Shown here: one piece after another, positions 6,453-35,772 of the stretch | How the letters are laid out: the number at the start of each line of letters is the position of its first letter | Numbering within the stretch: position 1 is the first letter of the stretch | Assembly: GCA_034423215.1 (NCBI GenBank) | Contig: DAOUIY010000008.1 | Location: 80,904 to 144,903 of the forward strand | Reading direction: 5' to 3' | Source: Dehalococcoidia bacterium | GTDB lineage: Bacteria > Chloroflexota > Dehalococcoidia > Lucifugimonadales > UBA3495 | DNA length: 64,000 nucleotides | Made by a program: the position numbers and the translations under genes | The notes under the pieces: generated by a model | Told to the model about the DNA's origin: nothing | The model's database searches: none | What the model saw: the letters and a program-made list of their open reading frames with translations, nothing else

Positions 6453-8684
6453 TCACTGGCCGAGGGCTCGTTCCAGGCCTCCCTCCCACGCCTCGCGAAT
6501 CTCGTCCAGGGCCACATCGGCGTAGCCTCCCAGCCGGAACCTGGGCCCTCCGGTCCATCCAATTTCCATCATCGGCACGTTCGTTTGGCCAGCCATGCGG
6601 CGAAGCTCCGGCAGGGCCTCCCGTTCCAGGGATACCACCACTCGCGACTGCCGTTCCCCGAAGAGGGCGCAGTCCCAGCGCGGCATGAGGATGTTCAAAG
6701 GCCTGGAACCCCGGAAACCGATTCCCCCCGGAATGGAGCACTCGGCCAGGGCCACCGCCAGGCCGCCATCCGAGCAGTCGTGGGCCGACGCAATTACCCC
6801 CGCCTGAATTCCCTGGCGGCACAGGGCCTGCACCCTGCTCTCCATCCCCAGGTCAATGGCGGGTTTGCCTTCCACCCGGCCGCAAATGACTTCCAGGTAT
6901 TCACTGCCCGCCAGGTCCGACGCCCGGGGCCGCAGCTTGCTCTGGCCCAGCAGGACCACGGGCATGCCCTCATCGGGGAAGTAGGACCGGGCGTGGCGGT
7001 TGACATCATCCAGCAATCCCAGGCCGCCAACAATCGGCGTGGGGTAGATGGCCTGTCCCTGGGACTCATTGTACAAACTGACGTTGCCGCTGATTACCGG
7101 CACGCCCAGGGCGCGACAGGCCCGGGCCATTCCCCGGATGCACCATTCAAGCTGGTAGTAGATGTCCGGCCGTTCCGGGTTGCCAAAATTCAGGCAGTCG
7201 GTCAGGGCCAGGGGTTCAGCCCCCACTGCGGACAGGTTGCGGCACACCTCGGCAACCGCTATTTGCCCGCCCCGGTAGGGGTCCAGGTAGCAGTACCGGC
7301 CATTCCCGTCAATGCTGAGGGCTATTGCCTTTTCCGTCCCATCCCTGCTGCCCTTGATTCTCAACACCGCAGCGTCGCAGCCCGGAACCACCACGGTATT
7401 GGTCTGGACCTGGTGGTCGTACTGGCGGTAAACGGAACGCTTGCTGGCTATGTTGGGAGCGGCCAGCAACCTGAGCAGCGCATCCACGACGACGACGCCA
7501 GGCGGGGGCGCATCTTCCAGGGTCAGATTCTGCCGCTTCAACTGTTCGGGAGAAGGCTGGCCCTTCAGGCGATACATGGGAGCTTCGGTCAGGTGTTTGA
7601 TGGGCAGTTGGGCGATGCGCTGGTCGCCGTCCAGAATGTGGGCCTCGGGACCCTCGATAACCTGCCCAATCTCCTGGCACGGCACGTCCCACTTGTCGAA
7701 TACTTTTCGCACCCGTCCTACGTGCTCGGGCTTCGTTACCAGGAGCATCCTTTCCTGGGACTCGGAGAGCATGACCTCGTAGCCGGTCATGCCCGCTTCC
7801 CGCCGGTTGACCTGGCCGATGTCCAACACTATCCCGCGCCGCCCCCGGTAGGCGGATTCTATGGCCGCGCTGGTAAGGCCCGCGGCGCCCAGGTCCTGGA
7901 TGCCGCTAACCAAACCGGTTTCCAGCGCCTCCAGGCAGGACTCAATCAGCACCTTTTCCAGGAACGGGTTGCCCACCTGCACCGTGGGCCGTAGTTCCTG
8001 TTCCTCTTCGAAGGTGCGGGAGGCCAGCCCCGAAGCGCCGTGAATCCCGTCCCGGCCCGTGCCGGCGCCCACCAGCAAAAGTACGCTGCCGGTATTGCCG
8101 GCGGCGGCGGTGGCCAGCTTATCGGTGGCAACCAGCCCGACGCACATGGCGTTTACCAGCGGGTTCTGGGAATAGGACTCGTCGAAGTAGATTTCCCCGC
8201 CGACGTCGGGCACGCCGATGCAGTTTCCGTACCAGGATATGCCCTCCACGACGCCGCGAAACAGGTATCGGTTGGCGGTGGAGTCCAGGGGGCCAAAGCG
8301 CAGGGAATTCAGTAGGGCGACGGGTCTCGCGCCCATGGCCAGGATGTCCCGGACAATGCCGCCGACGCCGGTGGCAGCCCCCTGCCTTGGCTCCACCGCC
8401 GATGGGTGGTTGTGGGACTCAACTTTGAACACTACTGCCATCCCGTCGCCGATGTCCACCGCCCCCGCGTTTTCCGCACCGGACTGGGAGAGCACGCGAC
8501 GGGAACGACTGGGGAAGAACTTCAGCAACGGCCGGGAATGCTTATAGCCGCAGTGTTCGCTCCACAGCGCTCCGAACATGCCCAGTTCAACCGGGTTGGG
8601 CTCCCGGTCCAGGCGGTCAACTATCATGTCGTACTCGGCCTGGCTCAGGGCAATTTCGTCCAGGACTTCTTTGGAAACGGGCAT
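6453..8684 (-). CDS. purL: phosphoribosylformylglycinamidine synthase subunit PurL
   Basis: 743 aa. FGALWSEHCGYKHSRPLL and AIR-synthase-like repeats, with the size typical of small-type PurL. Confidence 0.95.
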   Translation of the reverse strand: MPVSKEVLDEIALSQAEYDMIVDRLDREPNPVELGMFGALWSEHCGYKHSRPLLKFFPSRSRRVLSQSGAENAGAVDIGDGMAVVFKVESHNHPSAVEPRQGAATGVGGIVRDILAMGARPVALLNSLRFGPLDSTANRYLFRGVVEGISWYGNCIGVPDVGGEIYFDESYSQNPLVNAMCVGLVATDKLATAAAGNTGSVLLLVGAGTGRDGIHGASGLASRTFEEEQELRPTVQVGNPFLEKVLIESCLEALETGLVSGIQDLGAAGLTSAAIESAYRGRRGIVLDIGQVNRREAGMTGYEVMLSESQERMLLVTKPEHVGRVRKVFDKWDVPCQEIGQVIEGPEAHILDGDQRIAQLPIKHLTEAPMYRLKGQPSPEQLKRQNLTLEDAPPPGVVVVDALLRLLAAPNIASKRSVYRQYDHQVQTNTVVVPGCDAAVLRIKGSRDGTEKAIALSIDGNGRYCYLDPYRGGQIAVAEVCRNLSAVGAEPLALTDCLNFGNPERPDIYYQLEWCIRGMARACRALGVPVISGNVSLYNESQGQAIYPTPIVGGLGLLDDVNRHARSYFPDEGMPVVLLGQSKLRPRASDLAGSEYLEVICGRVEGKPAIDLGMESRVQALCRQGIQAGVIASAHDCSDGGLAVALAECSIPGGIGFRGSRPLNILMPRWDCALFGERQSRVVVSLEREALPELRRMAGQTNVPMMEIGWTGGPRFRLGGYADVALDEIREAWEGGLERALGQ

Positions 8685-28636: not shown

Positions 28637-29014
28637 GGGTCAACTTGCTTGAACTATGGACAATATTTCTGCTCACCATGGTCCTGTCGAAGGGCCGTTC
28701 CTTGATGGTCCAACAAGCTAATCATGAGCGGGCCACCGGGTTTGCTCATTGATGCAACGTAGGGGCGCGTGGACATGCGCCCCTACGGCCCGGCAATTTT
28801 GAATTGATGGTTGCAGCGGCCCAACCCGTCGTTCCCAAAAAGACGGGAACCTCGACCAACCCAACTCGTCGTTCCCGAGCAGGCGGGAACCTCGACCAAC
28901 CCAACCCGTCGTTCCCGAGCAGGCGGGAACCCCGACAGGCTGGAGTTAAGATTGCTGCCGTCGCAGGAATGACGGGTTAGTGCATTACCCATCTTTTCAA
29001 ACATGGTTAACCAC
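28637..29014 (+). repeat. most complete composite B-C-A element, with imperfect TIRs and a 3x tandem 40-nt hairpin unit
   Basis: Left end gggtcaacttgcttgaactatgg, right end ccatcttttcaaacatggttaaccac (imperfect inverted repeat). B arms, then C hairpin GTAGGGGCGC-gtggacat-GCGCCCCTAC. Three tandem units of cgtcgttccc....gggaacctcgaccaacccaac (28821-28935), then ATTGCTGCcgtcGCAGGAAT. Confidence 0.85.
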
Positions 29015-29047: not shown

Positions 29048-29680
29048 TCACGGCTGGGACAGTTCGGTGAATACGCGGCGCCATTCCTGGTCGTCTCCCT
29101 GTCCCATGCCCTCCCGGTAAGTTATCATCCCTTCCCGGTCAAAGGCGATTTTGGTGGACTGGATGGTCACACCCAGGTCCGCCATTACCTGGGCGGGGGC
29201 GGTGGCCACCGGCCAGGGATGGTCGCGTTCGGCCCGGTAGGTCTCCAGGGTGGTAATGTCCTCAACGATTCCCGGGTGGACTCCGATGGCATAGAAGTCC
29301 ACGTCCCCGGCGTATTGGGGGTAGATGTCCTTCATCCGCCGCAACTCGGCGGTGCAAACCGGTCAAACGGTGGCCCAGAAAAAGAGGAAGGTGGGCCGGC
29401 CCGAGTTCACCAGGTCAGCAGAGGTAACGGCGCTGCCGTCTGCCAGCGTCAGGGTAAAGTCGGGCACCTGGTAGCCCGGCTGGTTTCCAATATCGGCAAC
29501 CGGATCGGGGAAATCTGCGCCGGTAAGCACGTAGCCGGATCCAGGGGGTTCTGTATTGCCGCCGGACACGTCCATGCTCTCCCCGTTGGCAGCCAAATAG
29601 ATGGACACCCCCATTCCGATGGCGGGCACCAGCACCCCCAGCCCCAGCAACACCTTTCCGATCCAACCGTTCTTGTTCAT
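29048..29680 (-). CDS. membrane-anchored thioredoxin-fold (TlpA/AhpC-TSA redoxin-like) oxidoreductase, predicted selenoprotein with U-P-V-C motif (in-frame TGA at 29363-29365)
   Basis: Track ORFs 29363-29794 and 29048-29344 are in the same frame, separated only by TGA. The joined sequence reads ...GRPTFLFFWATV-U-PVCTAELRRMKDIY.... The TGA sits where the first redox Cys belongs. The paralog at 29831-30892 has the same arrangement and a hairpin lies 10 nt downstream. Start set at ATG 29680 because a strong terminator lies at 29744-29789. Confidence 0.8.
29336..29352 (-). promoter_or_regulatory. candidate bacterial SECIS stem-loop for the 29363-29365 UGA
   Basis: The mRNA reads UGA-ccgguuugca-CCGCCG-aguug-CGGCGG. 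This is a 6-bp all-GC stem with a 5-nt G/U-containing loop starting 10 nt after the UGA. A further A-U and C-G pair is possible across one bulge. The sequence is identical in the paralog. Confidence 0.65.
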
Positions 29681-29743
29681 AGTTGTTCCCACAGAATCCA
29701 AATGGACGACTTCGAGCAACTCGGCTATTGTTGCCCAGACCAG

Positions 29744-29789
29744 GAGTGAAAAGCAAGCCGGGGCAGGTTTCTGTCTGCCCCGGCTTGCT
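29744..29789 (-). terminator. strong rho-independent terminator between the two selenoprotein paralogs
   Basis: On the minus strand: AGCAAGCCGGGGCAG-acagaaac-CTGCCCCGGCTTGCT (perfect 15-bp stem) followed by TTTTCAC. Confidence 0.8.
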
Positions 29790-29830
29790 GGCATTCCAAC
29801 CTTTATTGGCTTATGAGGTCGGTTATTGCA

Positions 29831-30892
29831 TTACTGGGATGACAGGTCCGTGAACACCTGCTGCCAGACGTCAGGACCGCCGCCGCCAAAACCGTCCCGG
29901 TAGATTATGACGCCCCGGGAATCGAAGGCTATCTTGGTTGACTGGCTGGAGACGTTCAGGGCGGAAAGGGCCTCGCGTTCGTTGACGGGGTTGGCTACCG
30001 GCCAGGGAAACCCGTTTCTCTCTCGGTGGCTTTCCAGCCTGTTCACGTCCTCAACTGCCTTGACGTATGTACCCACCGCATAAAAGTTGACCTGGTCCGC
30101 ATATTCGGGGTAAATCTCCTTCAGCCGCCGCAACTCGGCGGTGCAGACCCCTCAAGTGGTGGCGGTAAAGAACAGGAAGGTCGGTTTGCCCTGCTCCACC
30201 AGGCCGGCGGTCGAAACCGTATCTCCGCCGAACAGTTCGAGGGTAATGTCCGGGATGCGGTTGCCCACCTTGTTGCCCACCTCGGGCAGGGGTTCCTGGG
30301 GAACCGGCGTAGGCGCGTCCGTGGGCGTGGGTTCCGCGGCCTGGGTCGGCGCCGGGGCGGAGGTGGCGGTAGGGGCCGGCTGTACCACGGGAGCCTCAGC
30401 AGGAGTTGCTGCTGTTGGCTGAGCTACTGCCGGCTGGGCCTCCGTCGCCTGGGTGGGCTCGGCGGCCGGCTCAGGCTGGGCAACTACGACCACGGCCAGG
30501 GCAGGGTTTTCAGACGCCGGCGGGTCTGCTACGGCTGCAGGGGTATTTTCCGCCGCCTGGCTCATTTCCTCGACGGACGGTGAATCCTGGACTGCTCCGG
30601 CAACCACCGGCTGGGTTTCGACCGGTGCGGCCTGCTGGGAGGACGTTGCCGCCAGGGGTTGACTCGCTTCCTGGGGCGCGGTCTGCTCAACCGCGGTGCC
30701 CAGGGATTCGGACTGCGCGCCGGTAGCCGGCTCCGATTGGCGGCTTTCTCCGGCGGCCGGGGCCACTTGTTCCGGGGGGCTGTCGGACTGGCAAGCCACG
30801 CTGGCTACCAGCAGCAGGCCAACCAATCCGGGGACGGCCCAGCGCAGCTTGCCGCGCAACCTCCGGCCCCCCGCGGGGAAGGTTAATTTCAT
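29831..30892 (-). CDS. lipoprotein with a long low-complexity linker and a thioredoxin-fold redoxin-like domain, predicted selenoprotein with U-G-V-C motif (in-frame TGA at 30152-30154)
   Basis: Track ORFs 30152-30892 and 29831-30133 are in frame across the TGA. The junction reads ...GKPTFLFFTATT-U-GVCTAELRRLKEIY.... Lipobox LLVASVAC, then about 170 aa of Ala/Pro/Gln/Thr/Glu-rich linker. The C-terminal domain aligns with gene A on both sides of the TGA. Confidence 0.8.
30125..30141 (-). promoter_or_regulatory. candidate bacterial SECIS stem-loop for the 30152-30154 UGA
   Basis: The mRNA reads UGA-ggggucugca-CCGCCG-aguug-CGGCGG. The hairpin and the 10-nt spacing match 29336-29352. Confidence 0.65.
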
Positions 30893-31403: not shown

Positions 31404-32891
31404 CTACCGGGCCCGGCCGCCCTGCAGCCAGGCCCGGCCGTCAATTGACATGAACCTGTCCGCTTCTACAGGCCCCCAACTGCCCTCGGAGTAGTAGTAA
31501 GGGCGGGGAGCGTTCGGGAGGCTGAATCCCGCGATGATGGGGTCAACGATGCTCCAGGCCTGCTCAATCTCGTCGGCCCGGGTAAAGAGGGAGGCGTCGC
31601 CGTTCAGGGCATCCAGGAGCAGGCGCTCATAGGCATCGGGGATGGCCTGGCCGCTGAAGGCCTCGTGGTAGTGGAATTCCAGCTCGGCTTTACGCATCTG
31701 CAATCCCGCCTCGGGAGTCTTGGTCTGAAACTCCAATTGGAACCCCTCGTCGGGCTGCACGAAGATGGCCAGGGTATTGGGGGGTATGTCCTCGTCTTCG
31801 GCCAGGGGGAAAAGCATGTGAGGCGGGTTGCGGAACTGGATGATGATTTCGGTGGACTTGTTGCGCAGGGCCTTGCCGGACCGCAGGTAGAAGGGGACTC
31901 CCTGCCACCGCCAGTTGTCCACGTAGAGGCGCACGGCCGCATAGGTGGCGGTGTCGGACTCCAGCGATACGCCACTTTCGTCCCGGTAGGTCCGGTACTG
32001 GCCGGGGATGGCGTGGACTGCCACGTCCTCCGGGTGGATGCGGCGGATAGCATTAAGCACCTTGACCTTTTCGTTGCGAAGGGCCTCAGCCTCGAAGGCG
32101 TGAGGAGGTTCCATGGCCACCAGGGTCATCAGCTGCAGCAGGTGATTCTGGAACATATCCCGCAGCACCCCGGTCTGGTCATAGTACTCGCCCCGCTCGT
32201 CAATCTTCAGGGTTTCGGCCACGGTAATCTGTACGTGGTCTATGTAATTGCGGTTCCATATTGGCTCAAAAATGGCGTTGGCAAAGCGGAAAACCAGCAG
32301 GTTTTGCACCGTTTCCTTGCCCAGGTAATGGTCTATGCGAAACACTTGGTCTTCCCGGAACACCGAGTGGGCGACATCGTTCAGTTCCCGTGCCGAGGAA
32401 AGGTCGGTGCCGAAGGGTTTTTCCACCACCAGCCGGCGCCAGCCACCGGCATCTTCGGCCATGCCGGCCTCACCCAGCCCGGCAATGGCCGACTGGTATA
32501 AGGCGGGAGCAAGGGAAAGGTAGTACAGCCGGTTTCCGGCCTGCCCGGCCGGCTCTATGCCGGAGAGCTTGTTCCTGACCTCCAGCAGGTCGCCGGTACT
32601 GGTGACGTCGCCGTGGAGGTAGTGAATGCGGGAGGCAAACTCGGTCCATTGGCCCGGCGTGGGCGAGGCTATTTCTCCGTCCAGTGACTGCCTCAAAAGG
32701 CCCCGGAACTGGTCGTCGTTCAGGTCGCTGCGGGCTACGCCGAGAATTCCCAGGTTTTCCGGCAGGCTCCCCTTGCAGTAGAGACTGCACAGGGCCGGCA
32801 CCAGTTTTCGCCTGGTGAGGTCGCCGCTGGCCCCGAAAATCACCAGCGTATTAGACTCCCGGCTCCCGGTGGGCAATTCAGCCGTCGCCAT
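31404..32891 (-). CDS. zwf: glucose-6-phosphate 1-dehydrogenase
   Basis: LVIFGASGDLTRRKL NADP motif and active-site RIDHYLGKE. Start at ATG 32891 with AGGAGG 7 nt upstream. The track ORF to 33179 is an upstream extension overlapping gnd. Confidence 0.93.
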   Translation of the reverse strand: MATAELPTGSRESNTLVIFGASGDLTRRKLVPALCSLYCKGSLPENLGILGVARSDLNDDQFRGLLRQSLDGEIASPTPGQWTEFASRIHYLHGDVTSTGDLLEVRNKLSGIEPAGQAGNRLYYLSLAPALYQSAIAGLGEAGMAEDAGGWRRLVVEKPFGTDLSSARELNDVAHSVFREDQVFRIDHYLGKETVQNLLVFRFANAIFEPIWNRNYIDHVQITVAETLKIDERGEYYDQTGVLRDMFQNHLLQLMTLVAMEPPHAFEAEALRNEKVKVLNAIRRIHPEDVAVHAIPGQYRTYRDESGVSLESDTATYAAVRLYVDNWRWQGVPFYLRSGKALRNKSTEIIIQFRNPPHMLFPLAEDEDIPPNTLAIFVQPDEGFQLEFQTKTPEAGLQMRKAELEFHYHEAFSGQAIPDAYERLLLDALNGDASLFTRADEIEQAWSIVDPIIAGFSLPNAPRPYYYSEGSWGPVEADRFMSIDGRAWLQGGRAR

Positions 32892-33798
32892 GGCTCGTCC
32901 TCCTGACCGGGTGCCCGCCAAACTGGTTGCGCAGGGCGGCCAGCAGCTTGGCGCCGAAGGGCTGGGCCTGGCGGGAGCGGAACCGCTGCAAGAGCGACAG
33001 TGTGATAACGGGAGCCGGCACCGCCAGGTCAACCGACTCCTGGACGGTCCACCTGCCCTCGCCTGAGTCTTCCACGTAGGCCTCCAGGTCGGAAAGGCTG
33101 GGATCGTCTTCCAGGGCCGACACCACCAGGTCAAGCAGCCAGGAACGCACGACGCTGCCGTGCCGCCAGGTATTGGCAATCCTGGGCAGGTCGAGGTTGA
33201 ATTCCTCCTTGGCCGCCATGAGTTCGAAACCCTCGGCGTAGGCCTCCATCAGGGCGTACTCCACGCCGTTGTGCACCATCTTGACGAAATGCCCGGCCCC
33301 CACAGGGCCCACGTGGCTATAACCCCGGCCGGCTCCCGGGGCCAACGACTGGAGAATCGGGTCCAGTCTTTGGAACGTCTCTTCCCGGCCGCCCACCATC
33401 AGGGTATAGCCCTCGGACAGGCCCCAGATTCCCCCGCTGGTACCCACGTCCATCAACTCAATGCCCTGACGTTCCAGCTCTGCGGCCCGGCGCAGCGTAT
33501 CCTTGTAGTTGGCGTTGCCCCCGTCCAGAATCACGTCGCCCGGACTCAGCAGGGGGGCCAGCGAAAGCATGGTATCTTCCGTTGGCTGTCCCTGGGGCAG
33601 CATCAGCCAGATGGGTCGGGGAGGACTCAACTGGTCCACCAGGTCCTGCAGGGATGACGCGCCCTGGGCTCCGAGAGCCCCGGATGCAGCGACGGCGTCT
33701 TCGCTGGTGTCGTAGGCAACCACGCGGTGACCGGATTCCAGCAACCGCTGGACCATGTTGCCGCCCATGCGGCCCAGGCCAATCATACCCAGTTCCAC
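32878..33798 (-). CDS. gnd: 6-phosphogluconate dehydrogenase, decarboxylating (short, about 300-aa type)
   Basis: MIGLGRMGGNMVQRL Rossmann motif and HNGVEYALMEAYAEGF. GTG start with a GGGAGG SD. The 3' end overlaps the zwf start by 14 nt. Confidence 0.88.
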   Translation of the reverse strand: MELGMIGLGRMGGNMVQRLLESGHRVVAYDTSEDAVAASGALGAQGASSLQDLVDQLSPPRPIWLMLPQGQPTEDTMLSLAPLLSPGDVILDGGNANYKDTLRRAAELERQGIELMDVGTSGGIWGLSEGYTLMVGGREETFQRLDPILQSLAPGAGRGYSHVGPVGAGHFVKMVHNGVEYALMEAYAEGFELMAAKEEFNLDLPRIANTWRHGSVVRSWLLDLVVSALEDDPSLSDLEAYVEDSGEGRWTVQESVDLAVPAPVITLSLLQRFRSRQAQPFGAKLLAALRNQFGGHPVRRTSHGDG

Positions 33799-33951
33799 GA
33801 AGCTAACCTCCCTGGCGCCAGCCCTGACTAAGTAACTATCTCAACAGTCCCTTCCCTTTTGACCGGAGAAGGCCAGAACGGGGATGGAATTTCTCCCCAC
33901 CATGCAGATACAAGGCATTCACCAAGTTCGCTGCAGGACTAGAAATTCTCC

Positions 33952-35577
33952 CTAAATGCTCTCGGCCAGTGGTTCAATGCCCCGCCCCGGTGCATCTTCC
34001 AGGCGGACTCGGGCGACTCGCCTTCCCAGGGCCTTCAGGGCCAGGAAATCACCCGACGCCTGGGCTTCCGCCAGCGTGCCAAAGGAGTAGGGGCGGCCGG
34101 GAATCTCAATCCGGGAGCCGCAGTCGGCCGTAAGTTGAAGGAAGATGCCCGAATCGGGGCCGCCCTTGTGCAGCTGCCCGGTAGAGTGCAGATAGCGGGG
34201 GCCAAAACCGGCCGTGGTAGCTATATTGTACTGCTGGGAAATCCGCCGGCGGAGATTATCCAGTTGCTCGTTCACCTCGGGCGAATCCGGCAGGTAAGCA
34301 AGGATGGCCAAGTAGTCCCCCAGGCCCGCCGCATCCAGCAGCGACTCCAGCGAGTGGGAGCTTTCCACTTCCGGCAGTTGTCCGGTGGCGACAAACTCAT
34401 CCAACACCCGGTCGGTCATATCCTTGGCTCCCTGCACGTCGGGCTGGTCAAAGGGATGAACGCCCAGCAGGTGGCCGGCCACCGCCGTAGCGAACTCCCA
34501 GCGGTAGAACTCGCCGCCCAGGTCGTACCTGTCCCCCAACCGCAGCCGGACTACCGGGTGATTGCCGGCCAGGCTGTCAACCAGCACATCAGTATCCGTA
34601 TTGTCCGCTCCTTCCAGGCGAAGGTAAACAAACAACCGGTCGTCGGCATAGCTTTCGGGGCTGAGCAAGGGTTCGTTCGCCACGGGAATTATCCCTTTGC
34701 CCGACTTTCCCAGGCTCTCGGCAAGCATCTGCTCTACCCAGAGGCCGAAGCCGGCCAGAGCGGGCGAGGTTACCAGGGTAAGCTTGTCGCGGCCCGCCTG
34801 CGCCAGCGATGCCATCGCAGCCCCCAGGCGGGCGCCGGGATTCTCCCCGGCAGGCGACAGGGCGCAGGCCTCGCGCATGGACTGGGCGCTGTCCAGCAAC
34901 CGGGGCAAGTCCAGTCCAATCAATGACGCCGGAACCAGGCCGAAATATGACAGGACGGAATAGCGGCCGCCAACTTCCGGGGGGTTTGCAAAGACCCGCC
35001 GGAAATGCTCCCTCGCACCCAATTTCTCCAGTGGCGTTCCGGGGTCGGTGACGGCGATGAAGTTTTCGCCGGCCCGCTCCTCCCCAACTATGGCGGCCAC
35101 CCGGCGCCGGTAGTAGGAGTAGAGGGTATTGGGCTCTATCGTCGTGCCCGACTTGGAGGAGACCAGGAACAGGGTCGAGGCCGGGTCTATCCTGGCGTCA
35201 ACGGCCTCAATCCAGGACGGCAGGGTAGCATCCAGCACCAACAACTCAGGGCAGCCCGGTCGGCTGCCGAAAGTGCGCCGCAGCACCTCCGGCCCCAGGC
35301 TGCTTCCCCCCATGCCCAGCAGCGCCACGTGCCGGTACCCACACGAAAGAACTTCGCCGGTAAAACCGTCCAGTTCCGCGACCTGCCGCCCCATGCTGGC
35401 CGGCAGTTCCAGCCAGCCCAGGCGGTCGGATATTTCTGCCGGCCCGTCGGCCCAGACCCGGAAATCGCCCTGCCAGATGCGGGAGACTATGTCCCGGGCA
35501 TCCAGGTCCCGCAGGGCGGACTGGGCCGCTTTGCCAAGACTGCCCAGAGATTCTTCTGAAGAGGCAACTGTAACCAC
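33952..35577 (-). CDS. pgi: glucose-6-phosphate isomerase (SIS-domain PGI of the type found in transaldolase/PGI fusions)
   Basis: LLGMGGSSLGPEV and FLVSSKSGTTIEP SIS motifs. The start is uncertain. I chose GTG at 35577 (GGGAG SD 6 nt upstream); the ORF is open to 35748. Confidence 0.8.
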   Translation of the reverse strand: MVTVASSEESLGSLGKAAQSALRDLDARDIVSRIWQGDFRVWADGPAEISDRLGWLELPASMGRQVAELDGFTGEVLSCGYRHVALLGMGGSSLGPEVLRRTFGSRPGCPELLVLDATLPSWIEAVDARIDPASTLFLVSSKSGTTIEPNTLYSYYRRRVAAIVGEERAGENFIAVTDPGTPLEKLGAREHFRRVFANPPEVGGRYSVLSYFGLVPASLIGLDLPRLLDSAQSMREACALSPAGENPGARLGAAMASLAQAGRDKLTLVTSPALAGFGLWVEQMLAESLGKSGKGIIPVANEPLLSPESYADDRLFVYLRLEGADNTDTDVLVDSLAGNHPVVRLRLGDRYDLGGEFYRWEFATAVAGHLLGVHPFDQPDVQGAKDMTDRVLDEFVATGQLPEVESSHSLESLLDAAGLGDYLAILAYLPDSPEVNEQLDNLRRRISQQYNIATTAGFGPRYLHSTGQLHKGGPDSGIFLQLTADCGSRIEIPGRPYSFGTLAEAQASGDFLALKALGRRVARVRLEDAPGRGIEPLAESI

Positions 35578-35772
35578 AAGGCGCTCCCGGCTGGCCGGTT
35601 CAAGGACTGAACGATCAGGTGAAAGTACGCTAAAGATACCATACCGTTTTCGGACGGGCCAAGCGAGGAGACAGACCATCCCGACCCAATTGGCCCGCGG
35701 CCCCATGCTATAATCCCGAAAGTTCCTACGGCAAGGTCTTTCTTCCAACCGCTATGCGCAGGAGGTATTCAG

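Follow-up and report, generated by a model that had tools for sequence, protein, structure and literature searches.

Two predicted selenoprotein genes, each with a putative bacterial selenocysteine insertion sequence (SECIS) element directly behind an in-frame UGA codon, are described here from a 64,000-nucleotide stretch of a Dehalococcoidia bacterium (Chloroflexota; NCBI GenBank assembly GCA_034423215.1, contig DAOUIY010000008.1, positions 80,904 to 144,903 of the forward strand), referred to throughout as the window. The genes, here called A and B, are unannotated and would encode TlpA-like redoxins in which selenocysteine (Sec, U) takes the first position of a U-x-x-C active site. From sequence comparison we put the probability that both hairpins are SECIS elements of two such genes at about 0.9. 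This reading rests on an in-frame UGA at the position of the catalytic Cys, purifying selection on the sequence downstream of it, the co-occurrence of hairpin and UGA among homologues, compensatory changes in the stem, and invariance of the loop at synonymous sites.

Genes A and B are tandem paralogues (Table 1) with 62% nucleotide identity over the shared domain. The gene A product has a hydrophobic N-terminal anchor and the active site FWATV-U-PVC, and matches the Pfam families AhpC-TSA (3.2e-13) and Redoxin (8.8e-13); the gene B product has a lipobox-like N-terminus (LLLVASVAC), a long Pro/Ala/Thr-rich linker and the active site FTATT-U-GVC (AhpC-TSA 3.6e-10, Redoxin 2.5e-08). Both C-terminal domains lie above the curated Pfam cut-offs (PF00578 AhpC-TSA, PF08534 Redoxin). 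The nearest solved relatives by sequence in the PDB are ResA and DsbE/CcmG-type thiol-disulfide oxidoreductases, and NCBIfam yields weak ResA/DsbE matches below cut-off. The UGA is the first position of U-P-V-C in gene A and of U-G-V-C in gene B, where Cys relatives have C-P-V-C, C-P-S-C and similar motifs. Gene A ends at a second TGA (29050..29048, minus strand), and TGA elsewhere in the window serves as an ordinary stop. A SECIS element behind the terminal TGA of gene A was considered and rejected; the hairpin found there is unrelated, and orthologues stop at the same codon position with TAG, TAA or TGA.

Table 1. Predicted selenoprotein genes, Sec codons and SECIS hairpins in the window
Feature	Positions	Strand	Basis or spacing
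Gene A, TlpA/ResA-like redoxin selenoprotein (predicted), 210 residues	29048..29680	minus	translation, Pfam, PDB sequence matches
In-frame UGA of gene A, predicted Sec codon	29365..29363	minus	alignment to first Cys of CxxC
Putative SECIS hairpin of gene A, CCGCCG-AGUUG-CGGCGG	29352..29336	minus	10 nt after UGA; 16 nt from UGA to loop
Gene B, paralogous TlpA-like redoxin selenoprotein (predicted), 353 residues	29831..30892	minus	translation, Pfam, gene A alignment
In-frame UGA of gene B, predicted Sec codon	30154..30152	minus	translation, alignment to gene A
Putative SECIS hairpin of gene B, same 17-mer	30141..30125	minus	10 nt after UGA

An earlier, sequence-only reading of the window had placed an identical hairpin 10 nt past both UGAs, and the same 17-nt minihelix (CCGCCGAGUUGCGGCGG as RNA) is indeed present at both sites, behind the spacers ccggtttgca (gene A) and ggggtctgca (gene B). 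The forced 17-nt hairpin has a free energy of -10.4 kcal/mol and lies within the minimum-free-energy (MFE) fold downstream of both UGAs. The exact 17-mer occurs at these two sites alone in the whole window, and the combination of a fully paired 6-bp stem with an NGUUR loop 8-13 nt past a TGA is likewise confined to them, with 0.25 such sites expected from shuffles.

Homologues were collected at both protein and DNA level. A single-sequence protein search returned 3 matches only and an alignment query was required; the resulting profile search found 222 proteins, 120 of which were listed. About three quarters of those listed are C-terminal fragments of ~93-113 residues that start just past the UGA, and the full-length matches among them are almost all Cys forms, the top match (P0004) being a UGA form translated with Trp. 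A scan of one genome per species gave 50 loci, nearly all from metagenome-assembled genomes (MAGs) of Dehalococcoidia, SAR202 or Chloroflexota, many of them from sponges, and a metagenome scan seeded with Cys forms gave 80 further loci. Every active-site motif was extracted, its codon classified and the same downstream columns read, and 84 distinct UGA sequences were compared with 66 distinct Cys sequences (TGC or TGT).

All 84 UGA homologues carry the stem at the same columns and with identical spacing from the UGA; all six pairs form in 79 and five of six in the remaining 5, where the mismatch is always the terminal pair, so that no UGA homologue is without the structure. The loop is AGUUG in 71, AGUUA in 11 and CGUUG in 2, with G2, U3 and U4 invariant throughout. 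All six stem pairs fall within the MFE fold in 74 of the 84, and the mean hairpin energy across the family is -9.18 kcal/mol. When a set of 74 sequences was given to RNAalifold, the de novo consensus was exactly the 6-bp stem and nothing else.

The covariation analysis proposed with the sequence-only reading came out in its favor, as compensatory changes are found at four of the six stem pairs. In the 74 sequences, alignment pair 23-39 is CG in 56, GC in 11, GU in 2 and UA in 1 (broken in 4), pair 24-38 is CG in 55, UA in 15 and UG in 4, pair 26-36 is CG in 71, UG in 2 and UA in 1, and pair 27-35 is CG in 50, UA in 20 and UG in 4, the last three never being broken. In one sequence of the metagenome set (L071), the third pair, invariant elsewhere, has become U-A through two non-synonymous changes. 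The observed covariation score was reached in 0 of 500 column shuffles, and sliding the 3' partner by 1-3 columns left 20-68% of cells paired versus 95.9% in register. Parsimony on a neighbor-joining protein tree built with the hairpin residues removed puts the state changes at three of the pairs at no fewer than 13, 8 and 9; the tree is rough and these counts are minima rather than probabilities, but changes in such number indicate that the compensatory replacements arose many times. Several of the switches couple a synonymous Ala change (GCC to GCU) with a non-synonymous change of Arg (CGG) to Gln (CAG), with no C-A mismatch among the 74 sequences, a coupling that a protein-level explanation could not produce. 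By contrast, the extension of the stem by an A-U and a C-G pair across a bulge, also part of the sequence-only reading, is present in the folds of genes A and B, yet its two pairs are disrupted in 8 and 12 of the 74 sequences and do not covary.

The invariant loop leaves its mark on codon choice. Because G-U-U never changes, the choice of codon is limited to UUR for Leu and GAG for Glu at positions otherwise unconstrained: counting residues from the Sec (U), Leu at U+7 is UUG or UUA in 83 of 83 sequences, while elsewhere in the same genes UUR makes up 17.6% and CUG 55% of Leu codons, and Glu at U+6 is GAG in 81 of 81, versus 54.5% elsewhere in the same genes. Ala at U+5 is encoded by GCC or GCU only. 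At the invariant residues flanking the hairpin (Pro at -10, Phe at -5, Thr at -2, Cys at +3, Tyr at +14 and Pro at +15), synonymous codons vary freely. Since the hairpin lies inside the coding sequence, the protein in turn is held to x-A-E-L-(R/Q)-(R/Q) just past the CxxC-type motif.

Translation appears to continue past the UGA. For gene A against colinear orthologues, the ratio of non-synonymous to synonymous substitution rates (dN/dS) from U+11 to U+99 is 0.05-0.12, with ~0.6 synonymous differences per site, and by this comparison purifying selection acts on the reading frame beyond the UGA.

The hairpin goes with the UGA and not with the protein family as such. In 65 of the 66 Cys homologues it is absent, with 0-4 of the six stem pairs in a pattern that looks random, and the peptides at the site include RREMNQ, RGEMAQ, ARELTE, FKELAE, RGELER and RAELTQ. 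At two loci (L001, 6001..7140; L002, 6001..7383) a single gene encodes a Cys-type domain, a Pro-rich linker and then a Sec-type domain; the Cys domain has no hairpin, and the Sec domain of the same gene carries GCGCCG-CGUUG-CGGCGC. The sole exception among the Cys forms (L054, 667..730; TGC, peptide CRAELRR) has the stem GCGCCG/CGGCGC with the loop AGCUG, in which an invariant U is changed. The sequences closest to it, among them L073 (78% identity) and L072 (68%), are without exception Sec forms, and the best reading is a recent conversion from Sec to Cys that left a decaying SECIS relict. In a third paralogue at locus L019 (~3909), the Sec position holds TAA and the hairpin is degraded and mismatched.

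Within the window alone, the case is less clear. The sequence-only reading had noted 18 identical nucleotides in the two genes and taken their conservation at synonymous sites as selection on RNA structure. The identity is real and extends further, to 21 nt (TGCACCGCCGAGTTGCGGCGG; TGC ACC GCC GAG TTG CGG CGG, seven codons), the longest exact match between genes A and B, followed by one of 12 nt. However, outside the hairpin the two genes already share the codon at 33 of 65 identical residues, and while seven identical codons at a given place have P ~0.009, a run of at least seven anywhere has P ~0.38. As about half of the codons are shared anyway, the synonymous-site argument is suggestive but not decisive for the window, where it is weak; across the homologues, which supply the decisive evidence, it is strong.

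We compared the element with the bacterial SECIS (bSECIS) model (Zhang and Gladyshev, 2005; summarized in PMC13188914), which calls for a loop of 3-9 nt on a stem of 4-16 bp; a G at one or both of loop positions 1 and 2, generally with G or U as the next base; a UGA-to-loop distance of 16-37 nt; and an MFE of -7.5 kcal/mol or lower. The sequence-only reading had held that the hairpins agree with the general bacterial model and its E. coli fdhF paradigm. For the general model this was borne out on all four counts: the window hairpins are stem-loops within the coding region, immediately 3' of the predicted Sec UGA, with a 5-nt loop beginning A-G-U, a 6-bp stem, 16 nt from UGA to loop (a 10-nt spacer plus the 6-nt arm) and -10.4 kcal/mol. 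They differ in consisting of the 17-nt minihelix alone, without a conserved lower stem, and the N1-N2 pair of the commonest bSECIS loop pattern is impossible for the first and last loop bases present here (A and G), save in the CGUUG variants. The minimal SECIS of E. coli fdhF is a 17-nt upper stem-loop 11 nt from the UGA, in which SelB contacts G23 and U24 and a bulged U17 is essential. The window minihelix, 17 nt long, comes close to this geometry but starts 10 nt after the UGA, one nucleotide nearer than the E. coli optimum. The apical-loop G-U of fdhF has its counterpart at loop positions 2-3, invariant in the window family. In contrast to fdhF, the window element has an AGUUG pentaloop on a fully Watson-Crick, G+C-rich 6-bp stem and no conserved lower helix.

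Several observations weigh against a SECIS function. The agreement with the fdhF paradigm stops at the bulged U, which is missing from the 5' arm; the stem is unbulged in all 84 UGA homologues. The spacing of 16 nt is the smallest that the 16-37 nt range admits. RNA folding, which had been proposed as a check, recovers the hairpin behind both UGAs but with z-scores of only -0.9 to -1.8 for the 43-63 nt after each UGA, unremarkable in a G+C-rich context. Generic bSECIS-like hairpins behind TGAs number 12 in the window versus 14.3 expected from shuffled sequence, so that a match to the generic model is by itself weak evidence, and an Rfam scan of the window returned one tRNA and no SECIS family match. 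The genes selA, selB and selD and a tRNA-Sec are absent from the 64-kb window and from the flanks of related loci examined. A search for tRNA-Sec across the window and 51 loci found none, nor did a Pfam scan of 36 large open reading frames of the window find SelA, SelB or SelD; an AIRS-domain protein (6453..8684) was considered as SelD and rejected, as it is PurL-like and has an FGAR-AT linker.

Evidence for Sec decoding comes from related genomes. One locus with these genes (L007) belongs to SAR202 bin22 of the Aplysina aerophoba study, which holds three such genes and for which two SelA, one SelB and one SelD are listed in Table S4 of Slaby et al. (2017), in our reading of column 24. In BSepDB, Dehalococcoidia MAGs are recorded with 46-49 selenoprotein genes. 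Sec decoding is thus documented for the lineage; as the window holds no Sec machinery, we infer the Sec competence of the source genome only from relatives and the literature.

Other explanations would have to account for the same pattern. The hairpin could be a by-product of T-A-E-L-R-R peptide conservation and codon bias, or of gene conversion between the paralogues, without any function as RNA. The shared codons and the P ~0.38 for a run of at least seven identical codons somewhere fit such an origin, ACC, GCC, GAG and CGG are all preferred codons, and the Cys homologue with the peptide RAELRR also bears the stem. Yet synonymous sites are fixed inside the hairpin only (UUR in 83/83, GAG in 81/81), and the peptide itself varies (T/A/R/S/G/V/H, then A/V/S, and later R/Q and R/Q/S) while pairing is always retained, with synonymous Ala GCC/GCU covarying with Arg/Gln CGG/CAG; in the other Cys homologues the peptides differ and the stem is lacking. 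A hairpin conserved across genomes at ~0.6 synonymous divergence cannot be put down to gene conversion inside a single genome, and we regard an origin as by-product or by conversion as highly improbable. Less probable still is that the TGAs are real stops, making these pseudogenes or, as in the annotation by public gene callers, split genes whose C-terminal fragment has its own start. Public collections do hold the products only as nameless fragments of 95, 100, 105 and 143 residues, but the TGA stands at the exact catalytic position in 84 distinct homologues, the two halves share one frame and jointly form one Redoxin domain, and purifying selection on the downstream half is strong. The truly decayed third copy at L019, with TAA and a degraded hairpin, offers a contrast.

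Hairpins a few nucleotides past stop codons can stimulate read-through in other systems. A functional RNA tied to the UGA could accordingly act without SelB, as a stimulator of read-through that pauses the ribosome or antagonizes release factor 2 (RF2) while a near-cognate tRNA (Trp or Cys) decodes the codon. The lack of Sec machinery in the window, the unusually short spacing and the missing E. coli-type bulged U would all suit an element of this kind. The loop, however, keeps G-U-U in 84 of 84 homologues, which points to sequence-specific recognition like the SelB contacts with G23 and U24 and not to a purely physical barrier. Moreover, the UGA replaces the catalytic Cys of CxxC, a typical Sec position, a related genome with these genes is reported to have SelA, SelB and SelD, and Dehalococcoidia MAGs are among the selenoprotein-rich bacteria in BSepDB. 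Read-through without SelB is therefore very unlikely, if somewhat less so than the two preceding explanations.

As SECIS elements, the hairpins would be expected to work as in E. coli and Moorella, from whose SelB proteins the following steps are drawn by analogy. With the UGA in the ribosomal A site, the 17-nt minihelix would sit just outside the mRNA entry channel, where the C-terminal winged-helix domains of SelB could bind it. SelB-GTP-Sec-tRNA(Sec) would thereby be tethered at the UGA and outcompete RF2, and selenocysteine would become the N-terminal residue of the U-x-x-C motif in an extracytoplasmic, membrane-anchored TlpA/ResA-like thiol-disulfide reductase. It is possible, although we consider it doubtful, that the element represents a lineage- and family-specific "minimal" SECIS class, namely a 17-nt G+C minihelix on its own, with G-U-U fixed in the loop, neither bulge nor lower stem, and the shortest allowed spacing. 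If so, the geometry of SelB-mRNA recognition in Dehalococcoidia/SAR202 would be unlike the E. coli and Moorella paradigm. The element would then also be an unusually clean natural case of RNA pairing dictating amino-acid replacements in the helix beside an active site, the residues at U+8 and U+9 (Arg/Gln) changing in step with the codons at U+4 and U+5 (Thr/Ala/Arg, and synonymous Ala codons).

Selenoproteins of this general kind have been predicted before, including a thiol-disulfide isomerase-like family (cd02966, UxxC; Sargasso Sea, 2005; representative MGB1650493.1) and a Prx-like thiol:disulfide oxidoreductase family (PF00578, UxxC). Judged by Pfam domains and the names of Cys relatives, the family of genes A and B appears to correspond to these. 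With the TlpA-like UxxC selenoproteins of cd02966 it shares a thioredoxin-fold Redoxin/AhpC-TSA domain, U-x-x-C in place of C-x-x-C and a marine origin, and its Cys homologues bear the source name "TlpA family protein disulfide reductase". It differs in gene arrangement, since the genes occur here in tandem arrays of two to four paralogues (e.g. at loci L005 and L006) and as fusions of a Cys domain with a Sec domain. As both the mechanism and the kind of protein are already known, the novelty is limited to new members, and the understanding of the mechanism is unchanged.

These predictions nonetheless bear on annotation. Throughout the protein collection searched (NCBI, ENA and Logan gene calls), these Dehalococcoidia/SAR202 genes are present only as unnamed fragments; the correction would restore both selenoprotein genes of the window to full length and would extend to more than 80 distinct relatives, present in that collection only as nameless half-genes. 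The compact, covariation-backed signature UGA-N10-stem6-AGUUR-stem6 could serve to find the family and translate it correctly in SAR202/Dehalococcoidia genomes, many of which are from sponge symbionts. The Cys+Sec fusions and the putative Sec-to-Cys relict also provide a well-controlled comparison of Sec and Cys forms, in which an RNA element of the coding region appears to constrain the protein. They thus make a clean natural illustration of protein sequence under constraint from RNA pairing.

Some products in the collection extend over more than a half-gene. A few, ~217-247 residues long, fill the interval between successive UGAs, and called proteins bounded by two UGAs include listed multi-domain examples (P0039, P0044, P0050 and P0079); proteins that run from UGA to UGA imply products with two or more Sec-containing redoxin domains. 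For P0004 (L055, 192..779), the JGI gene call reads the in-frame TGA as Trp (ATWWPVC). This locus does not yield the deposited protein under table 11, and the Trp looks like a gene caller's wrong choice of genetic code rather than a real Trp variant. At a further locus (L021, third copy at ~3909), a second in-frame stop lies five codons upstream of the Sec position (YF*ATT-U), yet the hairpin is perfect and includes a compensatory U-A pair. A scan for hairpins of this type behind other TGAs in all fetched loci gave more members of the same family and three apparent chance matches, and no second selenoprotein family.

The bases around the UGA are also biased. Most homologues have U directly 5' of the UGA (codon -1 lies at 29366..29368 and 30155..30157 in the window), and nearly all have C or G directly 3' of it. 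Thr at -1 is encoded by ACU in 41 and by ACC in 3, though ACC is preferred elsewhere. These biases may reflect a context effect on decoding or termination. In the UGA-GGG-GUN subfamily, to which gene B belongs, all 18 sequences encode Pro at U+15 by CCC, versus a mix of CCC, CCG and CCU in other subfamilies. The GGGG after the UGA could pair with CCCC ~40 nt downstream as a lower stem (30148..30151 with 30107..30110 in gene B); this pattern is given without correction for phylogeny and is not seen in the gene A subfamily.

Between the gene B stop and the gene A start lies a perfect 14-bp inverted repeat, GCAAGCCGGGGCAG-ACAGAAAC-CTGCCCCGGCTTGC, followed by UUUU (29750..29797, minus strand). It looks like an intrinsic terminator, missed by a simple terminator scan because its T run is only 4 T long, and the paralogues may consequently be separate transcription units. 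A pentose-phosphate cluster adjoins the redoxin pair (31404..35748, minus strand) and comprises glucose-6-phosphate dehydrogenase, a 6-phosphogluconate-dehydrogenase-like gene and a PGI-domain protein; its synteny with the redoxin genes is conserved at locus L003 (167..4220), and it may be of significance that enzymes generating NADPH are encoded beside redox selenoproteins. Finally, a dispersed palindrome resembling repetitive extragenic palindromic (REP) elements, CGTCGTTCCCGCGAAGGCGGGAACC, with the stem GTTCCC/GGGAAC, occurs 11 times in the window versus 0.06 expected. Three copies stand in tandem with a 40-nt period just downstream of gene A (28827..28931), and further sites are at 633, 10020, 13376, 15536, 20148, 25758, 43784 and 49193; candidate identities are a REP, a miniature inverted-repeat transposable element (MITE) or a terminator.

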